Source: a virus
Reading direction: 5' to 3' (one strand)
IMG/VR virus record: IMGVR_UViG_3300033388_002987
Location: 32,001-96,000 of that record
DNA length: 64,000 bases
The position numbers and the translations under genes were made by a program. Below the pieces are notes generated by a model, which did no database searches, was not told where the DNA came from, and was given only the letters and a program-made list of their open reading frames with translations. Of the stretch, positions 1,263-64,000 are shown in pieces. Each line of letters begins with the position of its first letter. Within the stretch, counting starts at the first letter, position 1.

Positions 1263-2086
1263 TGCAAGAATTAAACTTTAACAAATGTGAGGTACCCTAC
1301 ACTATAAAAGGGTGCACAGATACAGATTTTGGCGAGACTATATACAACCATTTTGAAAATCCTATTGATTTTATGAACGCAGTTGTAGCATGTAAAGACC
1401 ATACAAGTACATCACTCAAAACAAAAACATACATAGAAGAAGGTATTGAAAAATACTCTCAAATAGATTCAAAAGATACATCATATGACAAACTATTCGA
1501 GGATGTTAGTGTAACAGTTAAATCAAAGCTTTTAGCTAGAGGTTTTACAACAGCTATGCTGTACTCGTCGGTTAACTTTACAACTATTAATACAGGCCTC
1601 ATGTCAAAACAACGTGCTATGCTAGGACGCAGAGACTGTTATTATGAGAATGCCTCAATAGGTGATGGAAAATTATTTCACGACATGTACATCAATATGT
1701 CTTACAGCGCTAGAATTGACGACAAAGTAATCACTAAAAACTCTTATGCCTTATACGCCTTAACTAGAGAACTTGCTAAAGTTATACCTATGCGTATTAT
1801 TATAGTTAATCATGTAGGCACAGATATCCCTACATGCTACTCATACGTCCTTAAACGTTTTGGATTACCAATCAAACCAAAAAAATTTCTTTTCTTCACA
1901 AGTGATAGTAAAAGAACATTCGGCTGGGCTACATACGATTTATTAAATAATGGTAAATCTAACAGGTCTACAGTAGGATACCCTGATAACTCAGTCAGCA
2001 TAGCTGCCTTCAATTTAGATAAAGAAATAGACACTATATTTGAAAAAATTAAATTAGTATCTCCTGACTTATTTAAACAGAAGTAG
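1262..2086 (+). CDS. Putative degenerate VWA-like partner of the upstream AAA+ ATPase
   Basis: Translationally coupled (TAATG) to the AAA+ gene. HDMYINMSYSARI...RIIIV resembles degenerate VWA beta-alpha elements; no canonical DxSxS. Confidence 0.4.
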   Translation: MQELNFNKCEVPYTIKGCTDTDFGETIYNHFENPIDFMNAVVACKDHTSTSLKTKTYIEEGIEKYSQIDSKDTSYDKLFEDVSVTVKSKLLARGFTTAMLYSSVNFTTINTGLMSKQRAMLGRRDCYYENASIGDGKLFHDMYINMSYSARIDDKVITKNSYALYALTRELAKVIPMRIIIVNHVGTDIPTCYSYVLKRFGLPIKPKKFLFFTSDSKRTFGWATYDLLNNGKSNRSTVGYPDNSVSIAAFNLDKEIDTIFEKIKLVSPDLFKQK

Positions 2087-2092
2087 TATAAA

Positions 2093-2749
2093 ATGGCTTA
2101 TATATATAAAGATATCAAAGATGTTAAGCCTGGTGATGTACTAGAAGCAGCAGTTAATTCAGATACTATTACTAAAGGAAAACTATACTATGTGCTCAAA
2201 GATGGCTCTCCAGCTGGAATGACTTATTGCAGAGACGATGGTGAGATATCTGAAGGATTTAACCCTAGTCCAGATTACTGGAAGCTGATAAAAACATCCC
2301 CTGGTAATGTCGCTGCAATAGGTGATAAAGTTTTTTGCTACACCTACAACAACGCACATAGTGGTGCAAACTGGGTAACTGGTACGATATATACAATTGA
2401 GAGATGGTCTAGTGATTATAACACTGCTAAAGCTTTTGGAAATAATTGGAATAACCCTTCAACTTTTATAACACTTCATACAGTCCAAATTAAATTCAAT
2501 AAAAGTATATTAGAATACGATATACCAGTAAATTGTACTACAAACGAACAGGCAGTAGCACTCACAACATGGGCACACAATAATGGTAAAAAATGGGCTA
2601 GTGGAAAGTCCTATAAAGATTGCACCGATTGGGAGGATTATAACACTGCCACTGTTTATCTAGTTAATAAGGGTACACACAGTGGTATATCTACTCACAA
2701 CCACCATAATGAAAACATTTGGTCTTACCAAGACGCGTTAAAGGAATAA
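2093..2749 (+). CDS. Hypothetical protein, paralog of 7864-8625
   Basis: Shares MAYxYxxIKxxxPGDVxE and WKLxKTxPGxxAxxGD motifs with 7864-8625. Confidence 0.7.
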   Translation: MAYIYKDIKDVKPGDVLEAAVNSDTITKGKLYYVLKDGSPAGMTYCRDDGEISEGFNPSPDYWKLIKTSPGNVAAIGDKVFCYTYNNAHSGANWVTGTIYTIERWSSDYNTAKAFGNNWNNPSTFITLHTVQIKFNKSILEYDIPVNCTTNEQAVALTTWAHNNGKKWASGKSYKDCTDWEDYNTATVYLVNKGTHSGISTHNHHNENIWSYQDALKE

Positions 2750-2750
2750 C

Positions 2751-3260
2751 ATGAACATAGTAACACTTTCACTGAGACTACAATACGACGATGCAATCGC
2801 TGTATTGCAACTACTAAAAGATAAGGGCTTAAACGCTCATATCTCTCCTGTAGAGCCTAAAGAACCAAAAGGGGATGTAGTACCTACCAACCAAGTAGAA
2901 GACGTCAGAGAGTCTCTAGTAGAGCCTGCAGTAATACCTCATCACGCTCACCAGGACGCAGCTGTAACAACTGCACCAACCGCTGGTAAAACTGTAAAGA
3001 TGCCTGGATTCATGCGCACTCAAACACAAATAGACAACTACACTTCTAGCGAAGCTAGTCGTGTAGAAGCTCTAGATGAAGAAGCAGAACTACGTGAACA
3101 ACGACGCCAAGAGCGTTTAGCTAAAAAAGAAGAAAAAGATGCCGAAGCCTTAGAGAAAAAAGAAACTAAAGCAAAAGCAGACAACGAAGTTGCCGCAATC
3201 AAAGAAGCAACTTTAACTACTACAGCCCAAACTTCCATAGTGAAACCGTGGGAACTATAA
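2751..3260 (+). CDS. Hypothetical protein with a charged coiled-coil C-terminal half
   Basis: AAGGA RBS upstream; E/K/R-rich helical stretch. Confidence 0.7.
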   Translation: MNIVTLSLRLQYDDAIAVLQLLKDKGLNAHISPVEPKEPKGDVVPTNQVEDVRESLVEPAVIPHHAHQDAAVTTAPTAGKTVKMPGFMRTQTQIDNYTSSEASRVEALDEEAELREQRRQERLAKKEEKDAEALEKKETKAKADNEVAAIKEATLTTTAQTSIVKPWEL

Positions 3261-3506
3261 ATGTATGTTACTAAAATGAAACCTATTATTATAGAAGCTA
3301 TGAAATACACACTTGTTAATATCGAAACCAAAACAGGTTACGATAAAGACGATGTACTACTAATAACTTTTAAAGACATAGGTGTAGCAATAAAAATAAG
3401 AGACTACGCTAGAGGCCTTGGTGCAGAAGCAACAGTTAAACAAGAAACATCTCAACTAGTCTGTGTATTTATACATACTACTGATGTGTACAAATTAAAG
3501 GGTTAA
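3261..3506 (+). CDS. Hypothetical protein
   Basis: ORF abuts the previous stop; codon usage like its neighbours. Confidence 0.55.
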   Translation: MYVTKMKPIIIEAMKYTLVNIETKTGYDKDDVLLITFKDIGVAIKIRDYARGLGAEATVKQETSQLVCVFIHTTDVYKLKG

Positions 3507-50438: not shown

Positions 50439-53400
50439 CTAGCTACCTAATAAATAAGTAGTAGGTATCTCGTGCCCTGATGGGCTTACTACTTCCCACA
50501 TTCGTTCAAATACTTTGAACGGATTATAAGTATTAAGTCCTTTATCAAAGAAACTTGCATCAAGTACATCTGCAGTATCACCAGTAACGAACTGTTGGAA
50601 AGCAATATCAGCACCTACTCTAGCAGGATTCTCTTTAACAAATTTAGCAACTACTTTTTGAATTCTCACAAAGTACTTCACAAAAAACCATGTACCCATA
50701 GCATCCCCATATCTAATATGCTTCTCTAAAGGAGCTTCGTAGTTTACGTAATTATCAATAGCATTACGCATAGCCTTAGCTCTAATCTTTACATTAACAT
50801 CTTCAGGTATCTTATCTCTTACCTTCTCAGCTGCTTCGCTAGCTGATAATCCTTTATTAGCATACTTATTAACTTCCGATGCCAGCTTTTCAGTAGCATA
50901 CTTCGTTTGTTGTGCATCAATTTCATTGTAATACTGAGCATACCTAAAATAGAAGTCACTCACTTGAGTGGCTTTTAATAACATATGATAAGGCTTAGTC
51001 TTCTGTGTTAAGAACAAGTGCTGAGCAATACTATTTAATGTTTCATTAGGTATTACTTTATTACCAATTTCTTGTAACCAATTAGTAACTTTATTATTCT
51101 CATTAGCTGTACTAACATCCTCAACTATAGACTGATACAGCCCAGCATCCATCAATGGTGCTACTGTATTATTAGCTACGCTCGCTGTAAGCTCACGTAT
51201 TCTAGCGTCTACATCTCTAGCTCCACCCTTTTTAGCTCTTATTAAATTACCCAACTCTCTCTTATCAAGCTCATATGCCTTTAACTCTTTAGCTGCTGTT
51301 AGCATTAGCTTAAGCCCTTTAACCGGATGCACTCCAACATATAAAAGTATCTTAAAGTTTGACCATACATTACCAAGCAGTACTTCAGGTGTCTTAATAA
51401 CAATATTACCTTTAGCAATTTGCATTGTATCTTGCCATACACTTTCTATATGTCTTAGTTTCTTTTTATACTTTAATGGAAGGTTATCAAATACTTTAGC
51501 TTGTGATAAACTCCAGTCATCTTCTCCAAAAGCAATAGTTAATAATTTCTTATTAATAATAATCTTATCACTACCAAACTTCTTCGAAGCATAAGCTCTG
51601 GTTGCCTTAGGTAATCTAGCCCATAATTCTTCATAACCATTCTTAGGTGTTTTGATATCTATATCATAATCATCACCAGTTAAATCACTGCCTTCTATTG
51701 TAATAAACTCTTTCTTACTTTTTTCATTGTAGTTATTTTCATAATCATCAAATAATATATCAATAGTACTTTCATTATGTCTGGTAGTAGCATCTGCAGT
51801 ACCCATTGTACCCCATGACTTAGCTAGGTTTTCGGTTCCTCTAGTTTCCATGTCTAAGAATTGCTTCTTATCAGTTATACTCATAGTAACTCTAAAATCA
51901 ACCACTTCGCCTTGACTATTATAAATTGGGCTCATACCAAGAGAGTTTCTATCAGCCTTAAATTGTGCTAATGTAGCTTTAAATAATGTATTAAACTTTG
52001 CTCTCTTCTTAATTTTATCCCATTCTTTCACATCAGCGTCAGACTCTGCATGAATAATATCCATTAAACTAAGGCCTCTAGATTTCTTATCTTGTAGTCC
52101 TAGTGCTCCATTAGCTCTCTTGACAGCAGGTTCACCTGTCTTAAACATACCATAGTTACGTAAGTTGCCAGGTAAATCTTTTACCTCTTTTAATAATACA
52201 TACCCTTGCGCTTCAAGGTTAGCTTTCTGGCTCATAGGATGAAACTCAAGTACATTATCAGACTTATAAGTTTCTTTGACATAACCCTTAATACGCTTAT
52301 GCAAGTTACTTCTCATTTCTTCAGTTGATGCTACTTGTAGCCCAATAGATGAGTCAATAAACCCATTAACGCCTTTCATAACTTGCTTAGTATAAGCATC
52401 ACGACTTAACGGCTTATCTAATGTAAGTTTATACCTCTCTTTAGCCTTACCCCATAACGTTTGAGAGTAATCTATATAACTCTCTCCTGTCATAAAGTCT
52501 CTTAAGGTGTTTTTAGCACTATCTGCTGTAGCATCTAAGGCCTTATAGCTAATAAGTTGGTCTATTTGCTTAATAGTCTCGTCAGTTGCAGATTTTATAG
52601 CACCACCAAACCCATCAGCTATATTAGCTGCATTAGTAGCAGTCCCTACACCAGTTACCATATAAGCCACTTGTGACTCTATATCTGCTAACTGCTGTGG
52701 TGATAGCCCTTGGCTTAGCTCATCTATCTTAGTTTGTACCTTACTAGAATCCTTTAGAAGCTCTAGGAGCTCTTCAGCAGTTAACCCTAGGCTTTGTATG
52801 TCTGTACGTAGAACAACGTCTGTAAGTGACTCGTTGTTACCTAGATTAAGTATATCATTATTGATACCAATTCCTTCGAACCAATCTTTATCAGATTGTG
52901 CTAACACGTCTTCATACGTCTTCTCACGCATCTCATCAACTGCCTTAGTAAGTTTTAATATAGCATCAGCTAATTGATTGTAAGCCCCCTTCTGTGTTAG
53001 AAAGTCTCTACCTATACTTCTAATCATTCCTTGCTCTAATAACCCTACAGCCTCAAACATAGCGTTAGTAGTCTTAGCATATGACTCTGCTACGGCTCTA
53101 CTAGCCTTCGCACCCTTAGTCAGCTGATTCATCTTATACACAGTAGGCATTGCTAATATAATCCTCAGCATGTTATTCATAATGTCATAAACATCTTTAG
53201 ATAATACTACTGCAAAGTTTCCTGTATTAGTCTTATCATTAGCCTTACCTATTAGCTTATCCATTTTTTTCTTTAGACTAACAAACTCAGTAAGGTCTTC
53301 AGTACTTAGTACACCATTACCTTTAGACTCAATAGTCTCATCCAGTGCTCCTCCTAGAGTAATCAATGGCTTAGTAATTTGACGTAGGCTTTTATTAGAC

Positions 53401-54737
53401 ATCTCTATAACCTCTTGAGCCTTCTCCATACCTTTATTAATAGTTTCCATAGTCTGACTACCAGCAACCTTCTCAGTAGCCTGGTAGTTAGCTCGCATAA
53501 GCTTGAATACAAGGTCAGCACCTTCAGTAGTAACATCTCCACTACCTTTACGCTTAGCAAATCCCACTATTCTCTCTATTATATTAAGTAACATCTTACG
53601 TAACTTATCAATGACAGTATCACTATCTTTAACAGTATTAGTAGTAACGGCATTAATGTCTCTCATACCCTCTCTAAACATAGCATTAGTTGTAATAGCA
53701 GCCATGAACTCATGCAGTCCATTACCATGAGTGTCGTTGAATATATAATCCCACTTATCTTGTGCTTGCTTCTTCTGGTACTCAGTATAAACAACTCCAT
53801 CATTGATACCTGGTAACAATGTCTCCCAAGTAGACTCTTTAGTAGCCTTAGCATATAAGTCTTTTAGATCTCTCTTGAACGCAATAATATCAACGTCTTT
53901 AGCTATGTTTTTACTATTACTCATAACAAAGTCCATAACAGCATGTATTGACTCATGCACATACACTTCCTGATTCGTCATTGAAAAATTATTTCTAAAC
54001 TCAGCTGCAGGCCCATGTAAATCAAGTCTTACTTCAAGGCTGTCATTATTAGGGTCGTAATGCCCTTGTGCCTCAATCACACTATCCAGTGTACTCCTCT
54101 TAAGAGTTACATCTTTATCTTTAAAATCATTAACCATATTTCTAATAGTATTCAATGTAGTAGTAAGTAAGTTACTATGTGCCTCATTAAAGTTTTCACC
54201 CATATTAGCTTTATCAAGCTCTATGAATGCTTCATTAAGCTTAACAGTCTTATCAACACTACCATCAGTATCAATATAATACTCTTCAAACTCAAGGTGT
54301 GATATAGGCTCTGTAACACCTCTACTTCCAATAGTTATACGTCTAGTAAGCTTTACAAGACTCTCACCCTTAGCATTTCGATAGCCATGGGCTATCTCTG
54401 CATTAAGTAATTTAGCAAAGTTATCATTACTCTTATTATTATTGAATTGGTCAGTAAGTAGCTGTACTTCTTTACTTACTTCGATATAAGGTTGCTTATC
54501 TTTAGTAAGTGGAATAGCTTGACTGGCATTAGCTCTAATAGAGGCCGTCATGTCTTTAGCATCAAACACTTCCTGCTCTGATAAGTCTTTAGCTCTGTCT
54601 ACTACTTGCTCAGCTAGCTCGTAGGCCTTAACTTTAATAGCCGGGCCACCGAGGTCCGGGCTTGTCTTCTTTAACTCTACTATTGCTCTCTTAGCAATAT
54701 CATCTACCATTAGCTGCCTTGCTCTACACTTTGCCAT
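50439..54737 (-). CDS. Large virion protein resembling the C-terminal region of N4-type virion RNAP; zincin-like domain
   Basis: VHESIHA..LHEFMA. C-terminal YVNY..DAMGTWFFVKYFVRIQK recalls N4-like vRNAP C-termini from memory; not searched. Confidence 0.65.
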   Translation of the reverse strand: MAKCRARQLMVDDIAKRAIVELKKTSPDLGGPAIKVKAYELAEQVVDRAKDLSEQEVFDAKDMTASIRANASQAIPLTKDKQPYIEVSKEVQLLTDQFNNNKSNDNFAKLLNAEIAHGYRNAKGESLVKLTRRITIGSRGVTEPISHLEFEEYYIDTDGSVDKTVKLNEAFIELDKANMGENFNEAHSNLLTTTLNTIRNMVNDFKDKDVTLKRSTLDSVIEAQGHYDPNNDSLEVRLDLHGPAAEFRNNFSMTNQEVYVHESIHAVMDFVMSNSKNIAKDVDIIAFKRDLKDLYAKATKESTWETLLPGINDGVVYTEYQKKQAQDKWDYIFNDTHGNGLHEFMAAITTNAMFREGMRDINAVTTNTVKDSDTVIDKLRKMLLNIIERIVGFAKRKGSGDVTTEGADLVFKLMRANYQATEKVAGSQTMETINKGMEKAQEVIEMSNKSLRQITKPLITLGGALDETIESKGNGVLSTEDLTEFVSLKKKMDKLIGKANDKTNTGNFAVVLSKDVYDIMNNMLRIILAMPTVYKMNQLTKGAKASRAVAESYAKTTNAMFEAVGLLEQGMIRSIGRDFLTQKGAYNQLADAILKLTKAVDEMREKTYEDVLAQSDKDWFEGIGINNDILNLGNNESLTDVVLRTDIQSLGLTAEELLELLKDSSKVQTKIDELSQGLSPQQLADIESQVAYMVTGVGTATNAANIADGFGGAIKSATDETIKQIDQLISYKALDATADSAKNTLRDFMTGESYIDYSQTLWGKAKERYKLTLDKPLSRDAYTKQVMKGVNGFIDSSIGLQVASTEEMRSNLHKRIKGYVKETYKSDNVLEFHPMSQKANLEAQGYVLLKEVKDLPGNLRNYGMFKTGEPAVKRANGALGLQDKKSRGLSLMDIIHAESDADVKEWDKIKKRAKFNTLFKATLAQFKADRNSLGMSPIYNSQGEVVDFRVTMSITDKKQFLDMETRGTENLAKSWGTMGTADATTRHNESTIDILFDDYENNYNEKSKKEFITIEGSDLTGDDYDIDIKTPKNGYEELWARLPKATRAYASKKFGSDKIIINKKLLTIAFGEDDWSLSQAKVFDNLPLKYKKKLRHIESVWQDTMQIAKGNIVIKTPEVLLGNVWSNFKILLYVGVHPVKGLKLMLTAAKELKAYELDKRELGNLIRAKKGGARDVDARIRELTASVANNTVAPLMDAGLYQSIVEDVSTANENNKVTNWLQEIGNKVIPNETLNSIAQHLFLTQKTKPYHMLLKATQVSDFYFRYAQYYNEIDAQQTKYATEKLASEVNKYANKGLSASEAAEKVRDKIPEDVNVKIRAKAMRNAIDNYVNYEAPLEKHIRYGDAMGTWFFVKYFVRIQKVVAKFVKENPARVGADIAFQQFVTGDTADVLDASFFDKGLNTYNPFKVFERMWEVVSPSGHEIPTTYLLGS

Positions 54738-54745
54738 TGGGTTCC

Positions 54746-57700
54746 TTACTTACAGTTTTTTATTTTATTAGTTGTTCTAGCCACTTCCCCAGCTATGAAC
54801 TTATGACTAAACACGTCTGACGCTATGTCACCACTAACAACCTCTCTAACTTTATTGCCTTCAGCAATAGCTACATCCTTATCACTAACTGCTTCTAGTC
54901 TTACTTTAGGTAACGTAGGCCCATTCATCCAAGATTTTTTAAGTCTCTCAGTCCATACAATTCTAGGACCAGTGCCTGTTAATGCCTTTGCGTTGACTTG
55001 CTTAATCTCTTTAACATCTTTCTTAACCTGCTCTTGCTCTAAAACCATCGCAGTAAATGAGTCTACTAAGTAATCATGCATAGTACCTTTACGTTTACCT
55101 TGCATTCCTAACATAGTTAGTACAGTATCTATTAACACATCAAGTGCGTTAGTAAAGTATTCTTTAGGATTAGCAGGTTTTATACTGGCTAGCATTTTAA
55201 TAACTTTAGGGTTGCTCATACCTTCTGCTAAGAATTCTTCCTTACTCTGCATCCATAGTGCATCCATATCTGGGTCTGGTAACATATTAAATACTTCCCA
55301 GAATAAATCTTCAACTCTTTTAGTTAACTTGTCTTCAGGGTGTGCCTGCATATACGCAACAGACCCAGCGTGTACTAACTCATGAAATCTAACGTACTCA
55401 GCATCTTGCTCATTAATGTATTTACTTATAATCTTATAATTTTCATCTGTTAGCTCTTTAACATCAGCTACTTCTTTTGTTGTTGACGTTGGTTTCAAGT
55501 CTTTACTATAATGGCTACTAAGTGCCTCTTTTACAACTTCACCATTAAGGTCTCCAAGTACTATAGTATTAGTATCCTTAGTGTATTGTCCTAGTATAAT
55601 CTTACCTAAGTACCCTTCTGTAAACTGTCTAGTAATAAACTCAGGGTCTTCTACTATACGTGTTCCCATTACATCCATTATCTTAGCTGAGTACATATCA
55701 CTCATTTGCTTGTACTGGCCATATGCTGCAGAGTGGAAAGGGTTCCCTTTTCTAGCTAGGTCAACTGGTGATATATGAAAGTTAGTTATGTCAGATCCTT
55801 TATTATCCGACAGTATACCAGAATCCATAGCATTGTCAATTGGTGATACAAACTCGTTAGGGTATGACTCCGTTGATGACCCTACCACTGGTCTAGGTAT
55901 AGTAGTCTTTTCCTTAAGCTTAACGTTAGGCTCTTGCCTAGTGTAAGTCTCTCCCACTCTATCATAATGTGCACCTTCGTAAGCTGCATGCTCAAATCTT
56001 ATATCCTCATTTAGCAACTCAGTTCTAGCTGTCTCTGACTCATCATGCAGTTTAACTAAATCTTGTTGTATACTCTCTACAGTACTAGCTTTATCTTTAT
56101 CTGATGTACTTTCCTTAACATACTCAGCGTCAACAGCTTTAATGTCTTCTTTACTAGCAGCATTAATACTGCTGTTAACACTATTTAATATCTCAGTAAC
56201 CATACTATACTTAGTAGATACTTGTGCCGTACCTTTATTATATAATTTAGTCCCTTCAGTAACTTTATCAATAGCAAGTACATTAGCATCATGCACACCA
56301 AGCCCCTCAACCTCACTTAATACTAATGACTGTATAGAACCATCTATAAAGTGAATTGGCACAACAGCACCAGATGCAAATGATTCAACCATCTTGTATC
56401 TCTTAGCTTGCCCACTTAATCTCTTATTATCTGCAAGTCTTACATTAGCTTGGCCAGACTCTTTAACCCCTTTGAGCAAGTCATAGTTAACTGCCTCGTT
56501 ACCAAATATCATCATCTTACTTTTAGCATCACCTAATACAGTCTTAATTGCAGGCAGTGACTCTTCTAACGTCCCAATTATCTCATTAATCTCTGAGTCT
56601 TTCAAATGTCTACCAAGTTCTTTTTGTTTATTATCTACAGCTTTATCAAGCTTCTGTTTAAACAGTCTAAACATCATAGTAAATGAGTTATTTATCTTAC
56701 GCCCAGCCTCTATATAATCTCCGTATGTCTCAGTAAACGTTTCTTCTAAAGCAGTACCAACACTAGCTTTAATATTATTACGTATATTATCAGCAAGTAC
56801 CTCTGGTATTGTATACTTCTTACGTTGAGCTTCTGACATTTCTTGTACTTTCTTAGCCTCATTTAATGCTAACTGTATAGTAGCTTTACTACCATCTGCA
56901 GCTACCCATCCATCTTTAGTATTTTTCATACTGACACCGGAGTCTTTAATTATAGCTATTACTTGAGCTACATCTTGAGTACTTGAAATATTAGTATATA
57001 AACTCTCAATAGCATCATCAGCTATCGTACTTATAATCTTAGGTAGTCCAGAACCATAATTAAATACCATAAACGGGTTCTTCATAAAGTTTCTACTAAT
57101 AGTTTTTATAGCCTCATCTACACCAGTACTTAACGCTAACTCGGTAGCTCTCTTGTTGGCACGTACGTACCAACTACGTCTATCACCCTTAGGTAGGTTA
57201 TCCTCAATAGTTTTGGCAATCTTAGGCAGCTTACGCGTCATTACCTCAGCAGGTGTATTATACGCATCAGTATAGCCGGCTTGCTCAGCCTGTCTACCAT
57301 AACTAGTATTCTCATTAAAATCAAAGAATACTCCGCCTTTAGCTAGGAAGTTCTTAACATCTTTAATAATAGGCATTTGCAATATCTTAAGTATAAACCC
57401 TGACGTAACTGCATCTGTCTCAATAGGTAACTTAGACTCAAAACCAACTAATGTTTTATTCTTAGCTTCGTATTTATTAGTAGCTCTTAGCTCGGCAAGC
57501 CCACCTATAGTGTGCTCTATATCATGTGACCAGCCATTATCTTGCACCTCTATAAGTATCTCTAAGTCAGTTTTACCATCAGTAATCATCTTATCAAGTT
57601 TGGTCTTAAGTTCACTCCATTCTTTAAGTGCGTTAGCCTTTGACTTCTTATCTATATCAACACCAAACGCCATAGCTAACGCTAACCTATGATCATCCAT

Positions 57701-60574
57701 AAGCTCTTCTGTCACAGTAGCAGCCTCTATAGTAATAGCAAACCTATGTAGCTTCTTACCTTGAGGATTAAATGTATTAGAGTCTAATATGAATCTACCA
57801 TTCTTAACAAATTTGTAAGGGAAGTACATCTCTGTCACACCAGACTCCTGCATCTGCTTGTGCCAATCTTCTAAGAAATCCATATCACTTTCTATAGCAA
57901 AGTTCTTACCATTAACACTTGGCTTAATAAGGTCATGTACTGTATTAGGGTCAACCCATCCTAGTAACACTCTTAACTGTTGTTTACCTTCTTCAGTCTT
58001 TGTCATCTCAAAGTAAGAGTCCATATAACCATCAGTCCATTCCCAGCTAGTAGCCTCTTGCTTATTAACTGCTTCTACAGTCTTAGTAGCTGTATCATAA
58101 TGCTTACCAATATCTGAGGAGTTACGTACAGTACGCTCTCTCAACGGTGCAGTAGTAGAAGGATATCTCATAGAAGTCTCTGTACCAAGTACTTTATTAG
58201 CATATCTACTACCAATACTTAACAGTTTATTCTTTCTAGGATTATCAAACCAATCGTTAGCACCAGTAAACTTAAAGTGGCCAACACTCACATCAACACC
58301 TTCTTGCTCACCAAATATCTCCGATGATTTCTTAACACCTGTCTCTATTAACTTATTATCTTCCATAGCAGCAAGTGCAGTAAGTCCTAACTCAGTTTTG
58401 AACTTAGCTTCCGTAACTTCTCTATTCTCACCTTCAACATCTTTAATCTTAAGCCCAAGGTTCTTATATATAATACTACCAATACTATTAGCGGCTGTTG
58501 ATGTTAATCCATCAATATCCCCAACTCTTTCACGCTCTTCTTTAGTTAAAGAATCCTCTACATTCTTACCAAGTAATCTATTTATATCTTCATCAGTCCT
58601 TTTACTTGCTCTTAAACTTCCATAGTTAACCATCCAATCATTGATAGCTAATGCCATTGCAGTAATAACTTCCTTAGGAAGTGTATAGTTACCAGGCTCT
58701 CCTTGTAATAGTAACCTCGTAAGAGATTGGTATGCTTCGGACGGTGTATTACTTGTAACATCTAAGTCAGATATCCATCTTTGATCAAGTCCTTGTTTAA
58801 CGAATCTTCTTATGTACTTCTCAGTAGTATTAGTAAGCTTCTTAGCACCATCTAAATACTTAGCTTCTAAACCTTCTCCAACAGTTTGTTTTATAGCTTC
58901 AAAACCTTCTCCAAATATATTAGCAACAACATTTAAGTTATTGTATACCTTCTTAACAGTAAAGAAATCTGAAAGTCTTACAGCTTCAGCATCTTTCTTA
59001 AACCTTCTAGCAGGCTTATTTGCTAATAGTCTATCACCAATAGTACCTTCAAGACCTAACTCAGAAAGTACCTTATCAGCTCTCTTCTCAAGCTTAATAA
59101 TTTCTTTACTAGTTTTAATTCGCTCAGTAATAGTCTCGGTAGCTTTTGCATCTTCTAACCATTTAATATCTTCACGGATAGCAGCTAACTCTTTATTAAG
59201 CTCTGCAGTATTTATTGTTGTAGTTATAGGCTCTTTTACCTTAACTTCAGTTACTTCCTCAACAGGTGCTTGTGCTTCAGCATCTAGACGCTCTGCTTCA
59301 GCTATATCGTCAGCACTATAGTCTTCGTACTTCTCTATACCATCCTTAGTCTTAGTAATAAAAGCTTCGTCTCTAGCTTTATCCTGAGCATCTTCAGTAC
59401 CACCAATATCCGCATTATCTTTAGTAGCAGCTTTTACTTTCTCTACTTGAGTATTAGGCTTACCTAATCTGTACTTATACGTCTTACCATTTTTAAGTTC
59501 AGCTCTTACTTCGTCTAGGAACTTAGTAACTTCAGCTCTTTTCTTAGCAGTCCATGGCTTAAGCTCAGCGTGCTCTTTAGCTAATTTATTAACTTTATTT
59601 TTAACGGCAACCTTTAACTTAGAAGTATCTATACTAAAAGTATCTTTAAACTTTGATTCTTTTTTAGGTTTAGTTTTTTCAGGAGTAGTAGTATCTTTTT
59701 CTGAAATTTCAGCAACCTTTGGTGCCTGCTCGTCCAACATCTTTAAATTAGCATCTAATAGAACATCAAATAGATTATTGAGCTCTTCACCTTTAAATCC
59801 TAATATCTGTAATACATTATTAAGAACAACTTCATACATATTACTAAGTCTACTAATTGGCTTACCAGGAACTACACTCATAAGTTCTTTCATAAATTCT
59901 GGGTTTGATAACGCCTCTGCCAGAAACTCATCAACATTAGTTTCCCAATATGTGCTCTTAAACTTTAACTTATCTTTATTAGTAAGTAGGTAAGTGTAAA
60001 TATCCTCTATACGCTTAGTAGCTGGCTCGTTTGGGTTAGAGCTCATGTACTCTATAGCACCTGCGTGTACAAGCTCATGCAGCAGAAAGTGTGTCCCTCT
60101 AGCCTCTTTAATCTGGTTAAATACGTTTTCTACTTCAGCATCCAGCCTACGAGTCATATCCTCTTCAGTCTGTAACGTACCAACGCCGTCTAGTGTTCCA
60201 TCAGTAACTTGCTTATAGAAGTCAATAGCTATCTGCTTCTTAACATCCACATCAACTACACTAGCAACTTCAACGCCTTTACCAACACTAAATCTGGCAG
60301 GGCTAAATTGCTTAATACCAGTACGTATTTGGCCTAAAGTATATGCAACGCTGTCTGTGAACTTAACCCCAGTAACATCTCTTATAAGACTACCAAAGCC
60401 CTCACTAAACTCTTGTAAGCTAGTATCACTAGCAGACTTCCCTGCAGTTTTTACTACAAGCTTACCAAACAGTTTTTCAGCTACTTTAGCGTTATTAAGT
60501 ATTCTTTCAATCTTCACCCTAGCAGCGGGTGTGCCTTGTAGTAGTGCAATAGCCTCTTTTAGTTGACAAGCCAC
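54746..60574 (-). CDS. Virion-encapsidated single-subunit (T7/N4-type) RNA polymerase flanked by two zincin-like domains
   Basis: KNGR, motif A ETDAVTSG (~57400-57424), motif B RNFMKNPFMVFNYGSG (~57046-57093), motif C VHDAN (~56282-56296), and HELVH twice. GTG start. Confidence 0.85.
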   Translation of the reverse strand: MACQLKEAIALLQGTPAARVKIERILNNAKVAEKLFGKLVVKTAGKSASDTSLQEFSEGFGSLIRDVTGVKFTDSVAYTLGQIRTGIKQFSPARFSVGKGVEVASVVDVDVKKQIAIDFYKQVTDGTLDGVGTLQTEEDMTRRLDAEVENVFNQIKEARGTHFLLHELVHAGAIEYMSSNPNEPATKRIEDIYTYLLTNKDKLKFKSTYWETNVDEFLAEALSNPEFMKELMSVVPGKPISRLSNMYEVVLNNVLQILGFKGEELNNLFDVLLDANLKMLDEQAPKVAEISEKDTTTPEKTKPKKESKFKDTFSIDTSKLKVAVKNKVNKLAKEHAELKPWTAKKRAEVTKFLDEVRAELKNGKTYKYRLGKPNTQVEKVKAATKDNADIGGTEDAQDKARDEAFITKTKDGIEKYEDYSADDIAEAERLDAEAQAPVEEVTEVKVKEPITTTINTAELNKELAAIREDIKWLEDAKATETITERIKTSKEIIKLEKRADKVLSELGLEGTIGDRLLANKPARRFKKDAEAVRLSDFFTVKKVYNNLNVVANIFGEGFEAIKQTVGEGLEAKYLDGAKKLTNTTEKYIRRFVKQGLDQRWISDLDVTSNTPSEAYQSLTRLLLQGEPGNYTLPKEVITAMALAINDWMVNYGSLRASKRTDEDINRLLGKNVEDSLTKEERERVGDIDGLTSTAANSIGSIIYKNLGLKIKDVEGENREVTEAKFKTELGLTALAAMEDNKLIETGVKKSSEIFGEQEGVDVSVGHFKFTGANDWFDNPRKNKLLSIGSRYANKVLGTETSMRYPSTTAPLRERTVRNSSDIGKHYDTATKTVEAVNKQEATSWEWTDGYMDSYFEMTKTEEGKQQLRVLLGWVDPNTVHDLIKPSVNGKNFAIESDMDFLEDWHKQMQESGVTEMYFPYKFVKNGRFILDSNTFNPQGKKLHRFAITIEAATVTEELMDDHRLALAMAFGVDIDKKSKANALKEWSELKTKLDKMITDGKTDLEILIEVQDNGWSHDIEHTIGGLAELRATNKYEAKNKTLVGFESKLPIETDAVTSGFILKILQMPIIKDVKNFLAKGGVFFDFNENTSYGRQAEQAGYTDAYNTPAEVMTRKLPKIAKTIEDNLPKGDRRSWYVRANKRATELALSTGVDEAIKTISRNFMKNPFMVFNYGSGLPKIISTIADDAIESLYTNISSTQDVAQVIAIIKDSGVSMKNTKDGWVAADGSKATIQLALNEAKKVQEMSEAQRKKYTIPEVLADNIRNNIKASVGTALEETFTETYGDYIEAGRKINNSFTMMFRLFKQKLDKAVDNKQKELGRHLKDSEINEIIGTLEESLPAIKTVLGDAKSKMMIFGNEAVNYDLLKGVKESGQANVRLADNKRLSGQAKRYKMVESFASGAVVPIHFIDGSIQSLVLSEVEGLGVHDANVLAIDKVTEGTKLYNKGTAQVSTKYSMVTEILNSVNSSINAASKEDIKAVDAEYVKESTSDKDKASTVESIQQDLVKLHDESETARTELLNEDIRFEHAAYEGAHYDRVGETYTRQEPNVKLKEKTTIPRPVVGSSTESYPNEFVSPIDNAMDSGILSDNKGSDITNFHISPVDLARKGNPFHSAAYGQYKQMSDMYSAKIMDVMGTRIVEDPEFITRQFTEGYLGKIILGQYTKDTNTIVLGDLNGEVVKEALSSHYSKDLKPTSTTKEVADVKELTDENYKIISKYINEQDAEYVRFHELVHAGSVAYMQAHPEDKLTKRVEDLFWEVFNMLPDPDMDALWMQSKEEFLAEGMSNPKVIKMLASIKPANPKEYFTNALDVLIDTVLTMLGMQGKRKGTMHDYLVDSFTAMVLEQEQVKKDVKEIKQVNAKALTGTGPRIVWTERLKKSWMNGPTLPKVRLEAVSDKDVAIAEGNKVREVVSGDIASDVFSHKFIAGEVARTTNKIKNCK

Positions 60575-60762
60575 TACGAGTTACCTAACAACTTAGACAG
60601 CTCTTTCTCTGCAAGTGCTTTGATAATAGAATTGACAGGTTGTTGGACACTATCATAGGTACGGCTAGTTCCATTGTGATGCTCTTTAACTATCAATACT
60701 CTCTCTTCCAGAGGAAGAGAAGGTGAAACATATAAGTACCCAGGATTTTCTATAAATGTCAT
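60574..60762 (-). CDS. 62-aa hypothetical protein wedged between the giant virion genes
   Basis: AAGGA RBS, TAATG overlap upstream and TAGTG overlap downstream. Confidence 0.6.
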   Translation of the reverse strand: MTFIENPGYLYVSPSLPLEERVLIVKEHHNGTSRTYDSVQQPVNSIIKALAEKELSKLLGNS

Positions 60763-63700
60763 TAACAGTCCTTCATGTCTATATTATTTTTAGCTAACAG
60801 TTGCTGTAACCCTTTACTAGATTTAACTAGTAACATTACATTATCTCTAATTGTGGCATTATACTCAGATTCAGTATCTTTCGCAACACTGAGTATTTCG
60901 TTAACTGGTTTTGCTCTAGCCTTTTTCTTAGCTTTTTCTATCTTAACATCTAAAGCATCAAGCTCTTTATTAGTCTCATCCAACTCATCTTGTGTAGCAA
61001 TAGGGTCAGCCTCCACAGGAGCCTCTTTAGTCTCAACAGGAGTACTTACCTTAGAAGTTTCTTTTGGAGCCTCCCCTGGTCTAATCATATTCCTTATAGA
61101 TGTATCCTCAGCACCAGTAGGATCTTCTATAAAGTTGTCTTCAAATCCATATCTACTATATAACCGTACAAGACGACTTAAAGTACCTACCTCAGGATCT
61201 GCTGTCAAAAGTATATCACTATCACCAAAGTTCTCTATAACCTTGGAAAGCAGTTTACTTGCAAGGCCCTTACCTCTACTGTCAGCACCTACAAATAGTT
61301 TACTCAAAGTAATGTCACCATTATCGCTTTGTACGATGTGTGCTGTGGCATTACCACCTATACTGTAAATTGTAGTATCACCTTTTTTAGTGATCTTAAT
61401 AGCCTCCACAAGAGCCTTCGTATCCTCTTTAGAAGTACTTACCTCAGTATCTTCTTTTGGAGCCTTCTTGACCTCTTTCTGTGACTTTGGTGACGCAGTC
61501 TTACCATTAGCAATTCGCTCAAGTTTATCTAACTCAACTTGCTCTTTCTTCATAACCTCTGCAAGATTAGCAACTATTGCCACACCCTTATAAGGTCTAC
61601 CAGCAAGCATTACTTTAATATCATTAGAAGTATTAACAGCTACAGACCTAGCTGCAGCCTTCGTATCCTCATCCCAAGTCTTCATTATCTTTATATTAGG
61701 GTTAACATCTTTAGCACCAACAACCCAAGGCATACCTTGCTCTACATCCCACTCTTCAACTGCACTAACAAACGTAGCAATCTTACTACGCTGACTTGCA
61801 ACAAAGTTATTAATCTTTTCAGTGGCATTAGCATTAGGACCTTTAAGTAGCTGATTAGCAAACTGTAAAACCCCAAGGCCAAACCTACCACCACCAATTA
61901 GTTTCTCTCTAGTAACATCGTATAACGTACTAACAGATGTCTTCTTAAGCTCAAGTAAATCAACTTGCATCTGATTTAATTCAGCCATAGCAGCTTCATC
62001 CTCAAGCACGCTATTTATATGTTTTAACGAGGCAGACGAGCTACCTATAATCTGAGCTACTTTAGTATCTAAATCAATATCTTTACTATTAATAATACTA
62101 TCAAGCTCTTTACTACTAGTAGCAGTAGACAGTGCTGTCAACTGTCTTATCTTAGCATCCACAGCCTTAAGTCTTAGTGGGCCAGCTCCTGCATCCTTTA
62201 ACTCTTGACGCATCTCTGTCATAGCATTAATACCAGTAGCAACAGCCTCTAACATACCAGGCATATAATCAGTAGTATCACCGCCAGCTTCTCTAGCAAC
62301 AAGCTCTGCAGTGTAATCCTTTATTTGCTGTACGCCATCGGCGTGCATATTATCAAAGTCTTTACTAATAGCTTGTAAGCCTTCAAACTGCTTCTCATTA
62401 AGGCTCTCTAAGTCTTCTAAAGACTCACCTTCAACAGAGTAAGTAGCCATATCTGCTTCTTCTAAAGCAATAGCAGATGCTTTATCAACATCTTTAGGTA
62501 CAGCTCCCCCAGTAGTACTTACATCGTAAGTATCTACATTAAGGTCACCTTGATCTCTATTACGTTGCTTGTTAGCTTCATCAATACCATCTAGGTCTGG
62601 ATTAGCTTTTTTAGCAGCAGTTACTGTGTCGTGGCCTGGTCTTACAGCTTCCTTAGCTTTAGTAGCTAGGTTTTTAGCTTTGTCAACTGCAGCTTCAGTC
62701 TTACCCCCAACTATCTCAGCACCTCTACCTAGTACCTCACCACCACCTTTAAGGGCAGCACCCATACCGAATCCAATAGCAGCTTGATGTGCAGTCTCAG
62801 GATCAGTAACTATATCAAGTACAGACCTCTCACCTTCTTTTTGTGTGGCAATAGCCTCACTTACAGCTTCAGCTCCCTCTTGTAAGAACTCTCCACCACC
62901 TGATTTAGTAATTCTTTTAATAACACCACTCTTAGTGCCATCAGCAGTTTTCTTTACTATATCACTGATACCAGATTTTATCAGTAACTTCTCTGGCACT
63001 AGTACAGCTATCTCGGTAAAGAATGTCTGAGCAAGTTTACCTTTACTCATTGGTTTATTATTATTCTTTTCATACTCTTCAGCGTAGTTTGATGTTCTAG
63101 TAGCAGCAACTACTGCAGGTCCACCTGGAATACCTAGTGACAATATCTCACCAGCACTACCTGCAAGGATTCTGTCTAGTTGGCTCATACCATGTGCAAG
63201 TGACTTAATATAGTCAACAGGGTTATCTGCGTTCTTCCATAACTCAGCAGACTCTTGCATAGCAGTATTATGCTCATTAATAGTTTCTTCAGATACACCA
63301 AACTCTCTTTGAGCTGTAGTAGTATCACGAATACCTTCTATTGTTTTACGTGAATCTTCATCTATAAAAATACCTGCTTTACCATCACCACCTAATGACT
63401 TCTCAACTTCAGATGCCCAAGCATCATACTTAGCAATATTCTCTTTACCTACCAGGTTCTCTAACATATTAACAGTATCAGCACCAAATTTAGCTACAGC
63501 AGCTTGCGCTATATCAATAGTCTCACCGATTCGGCCTTCGGAATCTGACTTAATCAATGATGCATACGCTTCAGTACTTGATGCTTTTGTAGGAGTTAGC
63601 GGCATTTTACCAATACTAGTTATTCCATCTACAACTGTATCATCTGGTAGTGAGTACTTACCACCAATAGTACTTATCACACCTAAGTTTCTACCATAGT

Positions 63701-64000
63701 TATTACGTGGACTTTTATCAAAAGGATTAGGATTAACTTCTTGGTAACTCTCAACTATTGCAGGCAAGTTACTGTAGGATGTCCCAGCTCCTAATATCTC
63801 TTTAGCAGAAGCTGCTTGAGCATTACCAGCAGCAAACACATCTTGCACTGATGCAGGCCTACCCAATTCAACAGATAATAGTGCTTGTTGTTCTTGGATC
63901 CTGTTTACGTTACGTGGGTTATTGAACCAAGATTGGCCCTTTGTAGTTTCGTATGTATCTATCCCAAGAGCTCTTGTAGAGCTAGGGTCATCACGTAATG
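60762..64000 (-). CDS. Large virion (ejection-type) protein with a C-terminal GNAT acetyltransferase domain; 5' end outside the window
   Basis: The frame stays open for 44 more codons from the track's TTG at 63866 to the window edge. GNAT motifs LFV..SRGKGLASKLL and LYSRYGF; A/G-rich helical segments. Confidence 0.75.
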   Translation of the reverse strand, partial: LRDDPSSTRALGIDTYETTKGQSWFNNPRNVNRIQEQQALLSVELGRPASVQDVFAAGNAQAASAKEILGAGTSYSNLPAIVESYQEVNPNPFDKSPRNNYGRNLGVISTIGGKYSLPDDTVVDGITSIGKMPLTPTKASSTEAYASLIKSDSEGRIGETIDIAQAAVAKFGADTVNMLENLVGKENIAKYDAWASEVEKSLGGDGKAGIFIDEDSRKTIEGIRDTTTAQREFGVSEETINEHNTAMQESAELWKNADNPVDYIKSLAHGMSQLDRILAGSAGEILSLGIPGGPAVVAATRTSNYAEEYEKNNNKPMSKGKLAQTFFTEIAVLVPEKLLIKSGISDIVKKTADGTKSGVIKRITKSGGGEFLQEGAEAVSEAIATQKEGERSVLDIVTDPETAHQAAIGFGMGAALKGGGEVLGRGAEIVGGKTEAAVDKAKNLATKAKEAVRPGHDTVTAAKKANPDLDGIDEANKQRNRDQGDLNVDTYDVSTTGGAVPKDVDKASAIALEEADMATYSVEGESLEDLESLNEKQFEGLQAISKDFDNMHADGVQQIKDYTAELVAREAGGDTTDYMPGMLEAVATGINAMTEMRQELKDAGAGPLRLKAVDAKIRQLTALSTATSSKELDSIINSKDIDLDTKVAQIIGSSSASLKHINSVLEDEAAMAELNQMQVDLLELKKTSVSTLYDVTREKLIGGGRFGLGVLQFANQLLKGPNANATEKINNFVASQRSKIATFVSAVEEWDVEQGMPWVVGAKDVNPNIKIMKTWDEDTKAAARSVAVNTSNDIKVMLAGRPYKGVAIVANLAEVMKKEQVELDKLERIANGKTASPKSQKEVKKAPKEDTEVSTSKEDTKALVEAIKITKKGDTTIYSIGGNATAHIVQSDNGDITLSKLFVGADSRGKGLASKLLSKVIENFGDSDILLTADPEVGTLSRLVRLYSRYGFEDNFIEDPTGAEDTSIRNMIRPGEAPKETSKVSTPVETKEAPVEADPIATQDELDETNKELDALDVKIEKAKKKARAKPVNEILSVAKDTESEYNATIRDNVMLLVKSSKGLQQLLAKNNIDMKDC

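Follow-up and report, generated by a model that had tools for sequence, protein, structure and literature searches.

Paired cysteines at the gene junctions of a split N4-type virion RNA polymerase point to head-to-tail disulfides

Introduction

Why should three giant phage proteins be free of cysteine throughout, except at exactly those termini that face each other across the gene boundaries? This question was raised by the window analyzed here, a stretch of 64,000 nucleotides corresponding to bases 32001-96000 of the virus record IMGVR_UViG_3300033388_002987 (117,954 bp). The record was rated complete and carries direct terminal repeats at its ends (~118-kb genome). Three large minus-strand genes, here called p1, p2 and p3 and arranged head to tail, encode a total of 4511 aa, 4452 aa of them within the window. 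A first-pass annotation had proposed that their products are a split polyprotein, possibly stitched together by disulfides. We describe p1-p3 as pieces of a split N4-type virion RNA polymerase (vRNAP), in whose relatives the cysteines follow the splitting of the genes. Judged from the sequences and by analogy to a solved structure, p1 and p2 as well as p2 and p3 are probably tied head to tail by inter-chain disulfides in one thread.

Results and Discussion

Four cysteines at four facing termini

The N-terminal domain (NTD) piece p1 (60762..64000, minus strand, 1137 aa) is encoded by a gene that continues to 64175, its last 175 bases falling outside the window. The RNA polymerase (RNAP) piece p2 (54746..60574, minus strand, 1942 aa) starts with GTG, and the C-terminal domain (CTD) piece p3 (50439..54737, minus strand, 1432 aa) starts with ATG behind an AAGGA Shine-Dalgarno sequence. 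The one Cys of p1 is its final residue (tail ..NNIDMKDC*, the asterisk denoting the stop; TGT codon 60765-60767). In p2, Cys3 (TGT 60566-60568) and Cys1941 (..KNCK*, TGT 54752-54754) were found and no others, and the sole Cys of p3 is Cys4 (MAKC.., TGT 54726-54728). No Cys is present at the two free ends of the set, the N-terminus of p1 and the C-terminus of p3. The MAC start of p2 was read from GTG-GCT-TGT, the GTG start being backed by relatives with ATG-GCA-TGT. The first-pass annotation had counted exactly four Cys in more than 4,400 aa, all at facing termini, with none at the C-terminus of p3. Our count of four in 4511 aa, with no additional Cys inside p1, p2 or p3, agrees in all these points.

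Elsewhere in the genome the Cys content is 1.35% in plus-strand open reading frames (ORFs) and 0.51% in the other minus-strand ORFs. At these rates 23-61 Cys are expected per 4511 aa, and the probability of finding four or fewer is 1e-6 to 2e-21. Given four Cys, a chance placement in which all of them lie no more than 4 residues away from the four facing termini has a probability of ~1.6e-10. On the basis of these probabilities a chance origin of the pattern was rejected.

The suppression of Cys in the ejection operon has been published (PMC11445570), and the absence of Cys in N4 was also described elsewhere (PMC3821669). We counted 0 Cys in N4 gp50 (3500 aa), gp51 and gp52, in line with the earlier statement that the N4 vRNAP lacks Cys altogether. 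The complete absence of Cys that marks the N4 family is thus confined to the interior of p1-p3, while all four Cys sit at junction termini.

p1, p2 and p3 as pieces of an N4-type virion RNA polymerase

By profile matches and alignment, p1, p2 and p3 are colinear pieces (NTD, RNAP and CTD) of the N4-type vRNAP of a distant N4-like phage. The profile PHROG 2206 (virion RNA polymerase) was matched by p2 with an E of 5e-99 at profile positions 785-2268 and by p3 with an E of 2e-109 at positions 2254-3379, which continue the p2 range. Precomputed matches of p2 to PF21867 and PF21894 were present as well. Using BLASTP, p1, p2 and p3 were mapped to residues 14-527 (E 5e-35 for p1), 967-1763 and 1925-3034 of the fully fused homolog P0130. 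Both the profile ranges and the mapping to P0130 bear out the split polyprotein of the first-pass annotation, as the three proteins are colinear with single-chain vRNAPs. In place of the one polypeptide of ~3500 aa found in the N4 family, there are three ORFs with proper stops and starts and a Shine-Dalgarno sequence.

The conserved single-subunit RNAP core of p2 (~aa 783-1572; 55859..58228, minus strand) is supported by the invariant columns of an alignment termed A1. Invariant in A1 are the T7-like catalytic motifs (motif A, D1054; motif B, R1161-x3-K1165-x7-Y1173; motif C, H1428-D1429) as well as C1941. Using phmmer, the core matched 151 of 153 proteins (P0001-P0153, the window's own P0001 counted).

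Direct similarity to N4 was weak. A phmmer comparison of p1-p3 with N4 gp50 gave no match and BLASTP gave weak matches only (E 6e-10 and 2e-7); known Schitoviridae share only ~22% identity with the window proteins, and no match to PDB sequences was obtained for p2 and p3 with phmmer. Because of the weak similarity to gp50, the junctions were mapped via fused intermediates. N4 gp50 consists of three globular units with two disordered linkers (907-1007 and 2102-2123), and its HExxH C1 subdomain (2124-2375) follows directly after the second linker (PMC13434306). In p3, the canonical HExxH C1 subdomain that opens the CTD was located by jackhmmer at aa 164-419 with the HExxH at 261 (53481..54248, minus strand); H261, E262 and H265 are invariant in homologs. 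Since this domain begins at residue 164 of p3 and C1 of N4 follows the linker, the gene breaks were placed at or near the N4 linkers.

With N4 gp50 and other Schitoviridae vRNAPs (e.g. Pseudomonas phage DEV gp71) the window shares the NTD-RNAP-CTD order, the T7-like catalytic motifs, the HExxH C1 domain opening the CTD and the suppression of Cys, the gp52-gp51-gp50 operon being Cys-free. Unlike N4, the window belongs to a genome of 118 kb, its enzyme is cut into three genes at two linkers, and it has two extra HExxH domains and a GNAT segment. Moreover, each cut is flanked by a Cys pair, whereas the single-chain enzymes are without any Cys.

Cysteines follow the split or fused architecture in relatives

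A total of 1.84 billion representatives was searched with the last 1200 residues of p2, yielding 624 matches. The best 150 of these, pairwise at most 50% identical, were classified, and their architecture was assigned by local phmmer of the RNAP core and p3. The counts by architecture and of internal Cys refer to these best 150 of 624. Fully fused proteins (n = 7) had 0 N-terminal and 0 C-terminal Cys. Proteins with the N-terminal part and RNAP in one chain (N+RNAP) lacked an N-terminal Cys (0/82) and carried one C-terminal Cys each (82/82). The three RNAP+CTD proteins had one N-terminal Cys each (3/3) and no C-terminal Cys (0/3). Middle pieces carried a C-terminal Cys in 38/38 and an N-terminal Cys in 31/38 cases. 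Across 295,347 residues only 3 of 178 Cys were internal. The distance of the Cys from the termini created by splitting was 0-6 residues, with the C-terminal Cys 0-2 residues from the end in 121/141 and the N-terminal Cys at position 3 in 50/67 proteins.

A comparable picture was obtained for the other pieces. Within the CTD family (34 members) a single Cys at position 3-6 was found in 27/34, and one further member has its Cys at position 10, behind a mis-called upstream start. Six CTD calls were Cys-free; three of them are located on short contigs, and one is P0160 of the relative L006, whose true p3 start was missed by the gene caller. The corrected start reads MSC and places a Cys at position 3. 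C4 of p3 was invariant in 20 homologs, and in each of the two p1 homologs recovered the single Cys lies close to the C-terminal end, at a distance of 1 and 4 residues, respectively. We rejected the idea that the N-terminal Cys stem from mis-called starts, because corrected starts add Cys instead of removing them, and the C-terminal Cys are independent of gene calling.

Three IMG/VR contigs (L001-L003) with 27-29% identity carry the three genes and the Cys positions as in the window, and L006 and L013 are likewise split into three genes. Among the closer metagenomic relatives both three-gene and two-gene forms occur. In the relatives with p1 and p2 fused (P0003-P0010, ~2200-2700 aa) the N-terminal Cys and the Cys of the former junction are gone; the Cys beside the CTD break is kept, and the CTD gene begins M-x-C. 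Conservation of the terminal Cys, on which the proposal of stitched chains depends, holds down to 25-30% identity, with Cys where the genes are split and none where they are fused.

How often the architecture changed was estimated from a FastTree of 123 RNAP cores, a quick tree whose deep branches are not reliable; it requires at least 24 architecture changes. At the N junction, independent pairs differing in split state showed the N-terminal Cys changing the same way in 9-10 cases, the opposite way in 0 and not at all in 5-6, the last being suspect truncations (sign test, p ~0.002). At the C junction 5/5 independent pairs changed the same way, with a p of 0.0625, the minimum attainable with five pairs. 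Repeated independent splits or fusions co-vary with the Cys.

Pairing at the junctions and tail motifs

Both sides could be read at 21 junctions in 14 genomes, among them that of the cultured Alteromonas phage AD45-P1, and a Cys was present on each side in 21/21. The genes between which the Cys are paired overlap in some cases, and the gap between the paired codons reaches up to 611 nt in L006, is 187 nt in the window and comprises two genes in L017. The junction Cys is encoded by TGT or TGC, and the intergenic sequences differ. As codon, spacing and intergenic sequence all vary, a signal at the nucleotide level cannot explain the pattern and was rejected. Since the Cys codons adjoin stop and start codons, we had considered such a signal together with a second idea, namely that the terminal Cys each bind a different partner (portal, inner capsid protein, lipid or a DNA end), with no bond between the two sides. 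No support was found for either. The matched pairs at every readable junction, partners lying between 187 nt and two genes apart, and the free chain ends, which never have a Cys (0/89 N-termini of N-fused forms, 0/34 CTD C-termini), argue against both and make them highly improbable.

For the RNAP+CTD fused forms (L015:2-3510, L016:1-404, L017:5028-9977) no C-terminal Cys is encoded by the genes directly upstream. The partner in L017 is a protein of 836 aa, encoded two genes further upstream, whose single Cys is the penultimate residue; the intervening gene of 638 aa contains four Cys. With the partner in L017 two genes away, clasp partners need not be neighbours.

The tails themselves fall into classes. 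Proteins ending ..[IL]DxKDC* were followed by a protein starting MAC[QE][LI]K.. in 5/5 cases (window, L006, L008, L013, L014), and at the CTD junction a tail ..C[KN]x* precedes a start M[ASGTP]C. These tail classes could provide pairing specificity, as far as the few cases allow. In L008 a 1035-aa protein with AAA_19/AAA_30/UvrD_C matches is encoded between the RNAP piece and the CTD (L008:6374-9481). With its Cys3, its penultimate Cys and these domain matches, it resembles an additional helicase-like bead of cargo in the chain.

The terminal Cys often has Lys, Asp or Glu as neighbours. Together with the one thiol per terminus and the HExxH domains near the junctions, this would also suit a bridge by a metal ion or by other reversible thiol chemistry (e.g. 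a Cys-Lys NOS bridge) in place of a plain disulfide. We regard such a bridge as very unlikely, since two thiols would not suffice for a normal Zn site, no conserved second ligand is present in the tails, and the sole solved example of the signature, in the cyanopodophage A4 described below, is a disulfide.

A cultured split polymerase and a solved head-to-tail disulfide

A split vRNAP is known from the cultured Alteromonas phages vB_AmaP_AD45-P1 to P4, in which ORF127 and ORF126 are separated by a stop codon confirmed by polymerase chain reaction (PMC3821669). Gels of AltAD45-P1 virions contained polypeptides of 270 and 175 kDa, both of them vRNAP pieces, and the authors took Cys as a sign of non-injection (PMC3821669). 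Neither the terminal position of the Cys nor their pairing was commented on there. We found the only Cys of the two AltAD45-P1 pieces at residue 2493 of 2495 and at position 4, which gives the same junction signature as in the window (..SKHCKQ* followed by MTIC..). In contrast to the phage of the window, which is uncultured and has two splits, AltAD45-P1 is a cultured relative with one split and two vRNAP genes.

The two separate polypeptides in the AltAD45 virions (PMC3821669) also bear on protein splicing or ligation, in which the Cys would be remnants of a split intein or of an enzymatic ligation joining the pieces by a peptide bond. In favour of this, intein junctions usually employ Cys as the nucleophile. 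As the Cys are only 0-6 residues away from the termini, intein halves would not fit there, and no Hint or intein family was matched in Pfam; a split intein was rejected for these two reasons. The pieces remain separate in AltAD45 virions, and we give joining by a peptide bond next to no credence.

A solved example of such a bond comes from the cyanopodophage A4 (Anabaena phage A-4L), where cryo-electron microscopy resolved a disulfide between gp27 Cys1715 and gp26 Cys5 in the pre-ejectosome (PMC12002296). In the A-4L genome the two genes are adjacent, Cys1715 is the only Cys of gp27 (1717 aa) and Cys5 the only one of gp26 (1114 aa). As in the window, a lone C-terminal Cys is followed by the lone N-terminal Cys of the next protein, and the window proteins show the same signature of a lone Cys near facing termini in otherwise Cys-free chains. 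The proposed chemistry has been observed directly only in A4. In contrast to the window, which is known from its sequence, the S-S bond was directly observed in A4; moreover, A4 belongs to the Saffermanviridae, and its bond does not concern an RNA polymerase. The authors described the bond as stabilising the structure locally and did not derive from it a general rule on split genes. BLASTP of gp26 and gp27 against p1-p3 gave a best E of 0.026 with scattered short matches and no detectable homology. As the A4 proteins are not detectably homologous to p1-p3, they serve as a precedent for how the joining could work, but not as members of the same family.

Disulfides in place of linkers

As the lone thiols always occur together at the ends of otherwise Cys-free chains, a disulfide is the simplest reading. 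Taken with the conserved pattern, the covariation, the pairing and the A4 precedent, head-to-tail disulfides are the best reading of the data. The bonds between p1 and p2 and between p2 and p3 proposed by the first-pass annotation are supported to this extent, the argument resting on covariation and on A4.

As with all proteins of this ejection operon, p1-p3 are kept free of Cys, except for one Cys 0-6 residues from each terminus made by splitting. The C-terminus of p1 would be bonded to the N-terminus of p2 and the C-terminus of p2 to the N-terminus of p3, with the disulfides standing where the single-chain enzyme has flexible peptide linkers. The three pieces would then be joined covalently in the virion into one nearly linear chain, in which no joint has stubs longer than a few residues. 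The pieces are presumably made separately and gathered by non-covalent contacts of tails and domains, while the bonds would arise during assembly or later, probably through oxidation after the particle has left the cell. They may serve co-packaging and ordered threading through the tail, the thread presumably travelling NTD first, as in N4. In the host cytoplasm thioredoxin or glutathione would reduce the bonds and uncouple the pieces.

Several points weigh against disulfide joining. Seven of the 38 middle pieces have no called N-terminal Cys; of the three inspected, one lies at a contig edge, one has an ORF open upstream of the called start and one, on a low-coverage contig, probably contains a frameshift. 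For this phage, as for any split vRNAP, the disulfide is deduced from sequence. Virions assemble in a reducing cytoplasm. No Erv1/ALR, thioredoxin or glutaredoxin was found in the phage genome, the Erv1 search being uninformative as its control matched nowhere either. Four free thiols possibly allow wrong pairings such as ring closure of p2, homodimers or a p1-p3 bond, and enforcement of the correct pairing is merely hinted at by the tail motifs (..KDC* with MAC[QE][LI]K.., 5/5). Finally, without sequence homology between the A4 proteins and p1-p3, that precedent is an analogy. A complex prediction of p2 1600-1942 with p3 1-450 (A1, A2) scored 0.21, which is under the mark and is not evidence either way.

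A bond between the junction Cys might act as an assembly tether alone, with no role in ejection or reductive release. A role of the CTD in N4 encapsidation was reported (cited in PMC3821669); as the CTD is needed there, a split phage would have to hitch NTD and RNAP to it, and the pairing data are equally compatible with a tether for packaging and a thread for ejection. However, a loading tether need not sit at the extreme chain ends, and the strict placement of the Cys (121/141 and 50/67, as above) suggests that linear topology matters. In addition, disulfide formation would be difficult at the time of packaging, in the cytoplasm. We consider a tether alone unlikely and prefer the disulfide-joined thread.

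A wider view, put forward tentatively and as conceivable rather than probable, is that terminal Cys clasps are a general, modular route by which podophages build an injectable protein train from separately encoded beads, in which tail pairs set the order and reduction uncouples the beads. Any bead with the right tails could then join, be it the NTD, the RNAP, the CTD or additional enzymes, for instance the helicase-like piece in L008. The order would be set by the pairs ..[IL]DxKDC*/MAC[QE][LI]K.. versus ..C[KN]x*/M[ASGTP]C.., and the reducing host cytoplasm would be the switch that uncouples the beads after entry.

Additional domains and neighbouring genes

The HExxH C1 domain usually occurs in one copy at the start of the CTD, and three copies were observed here, at both ends of p2 and in p3. 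The two extra copies in p2 were detected as an internal duplication and by jackhmmer. The first (N4 C1-like) comprises aa 41-290 with HELVH at 166 (59705..60454, minus strand), the second aa 1615-1849 with HELVH at 1731 (55028..55732, minus strand). They are 26% identical to each other (E 1e-23). The His-Glu-His residues of the domain are invariant in relatives, H1731, E1732 and H1735 in alignment A1. A GNAT acetyltransferase-like segment of p1 (61137..61364, minus strand) matched PF13673 with 23.8 bits at a cut-off of 23.6; the p1 homolog of L006 also has a GNAT-family segment. By this match, the segment would be an enzyme domain within the piece ejected first. The N+RNAP protein P0138 (L014:8534-16531) has a T6SS_VgrG3-like_C match (PF21277) in its N-terminal part, which suggests a cell-wall-directed domain in its leading piece.

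The genes of p1 and p2 are not adjacent. A Cys-free ORF of 62 aa (60574..60762, minus strand), which the first-pass annotation had missed, is located between them and overlaps the p1 stop and the p2 start by 1 base each (TAATG, TAGTG). Judged by these overlaps it is translationally coupled to both p1 and p2. It had no match in Pfam or PHROG. In the same position L013 has a 57-aa ORF with a tail in common (L-ELxKLL; ..LELNKLL..), and L006 has a 132-aa and a 74-aa ORF instead. The 132-aa ORF ends GIDLKDY*, a copy of the p1 tail GIDIKDC* in which Tyr replaces Cys, and by this likeness it may be a tail mimic or an assembly factor.

Directly upstream of p1, past the window end, Cys-free genes of 485 and 170 aa are encoded (genome C1:96224-98196, window 64224..66196). 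They occupy the position of N4 gp51 and gp52, to which they were likened by position alone; two small to medium Cys-free genes upstream are a feature shared with N4. A megablast of the locus against GenBank phages gave no match.

Implications for ejected phage proteins

The vRNAP family, its Cys suppression, a two-gene split and one head-to-tail disulfide in an unrelated phage have already been published. The first-pass annotation knew of no description of the mechanism. This holds for the split vRNAPs: our searches of the accessible literature found no paper stating a Cys pair at every vRNAP split and none at fusions, and no paper reading split vRNAPs as disulfide-stitched chains. It does not hold for the components, as the A4 bond (PMC12002296), the Cys suppression (PMC11445570) and the Alteromonas split (PMC3821669) are on record. 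What is added here is the rule, as read across ~190 relatives, of a Cys at every split and none at fusions.

If the disulfide-joined thread is true, it would explain how an injected enzyme of 3500 residues can be split into manageable genes with its single-thread topology kept, a single thread seemingly being needed for passage through a 35-Å tail, and new cargo would be addable too. The published view of the Cys-bearing Alteromonas phage proteins as non-injected would be overturned, and the no-Cys rule for ejection proteins would be sharpened by a single exception, the places at which chains have to be joined. A simple sequence signature would allow ejected cargo chains, and the order within them, to be recognized in uncultured phages. 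Finally, a redox-controlled step of infection is suggested, which would be directly testable in AltAD45 on Alteromonas macleodii.

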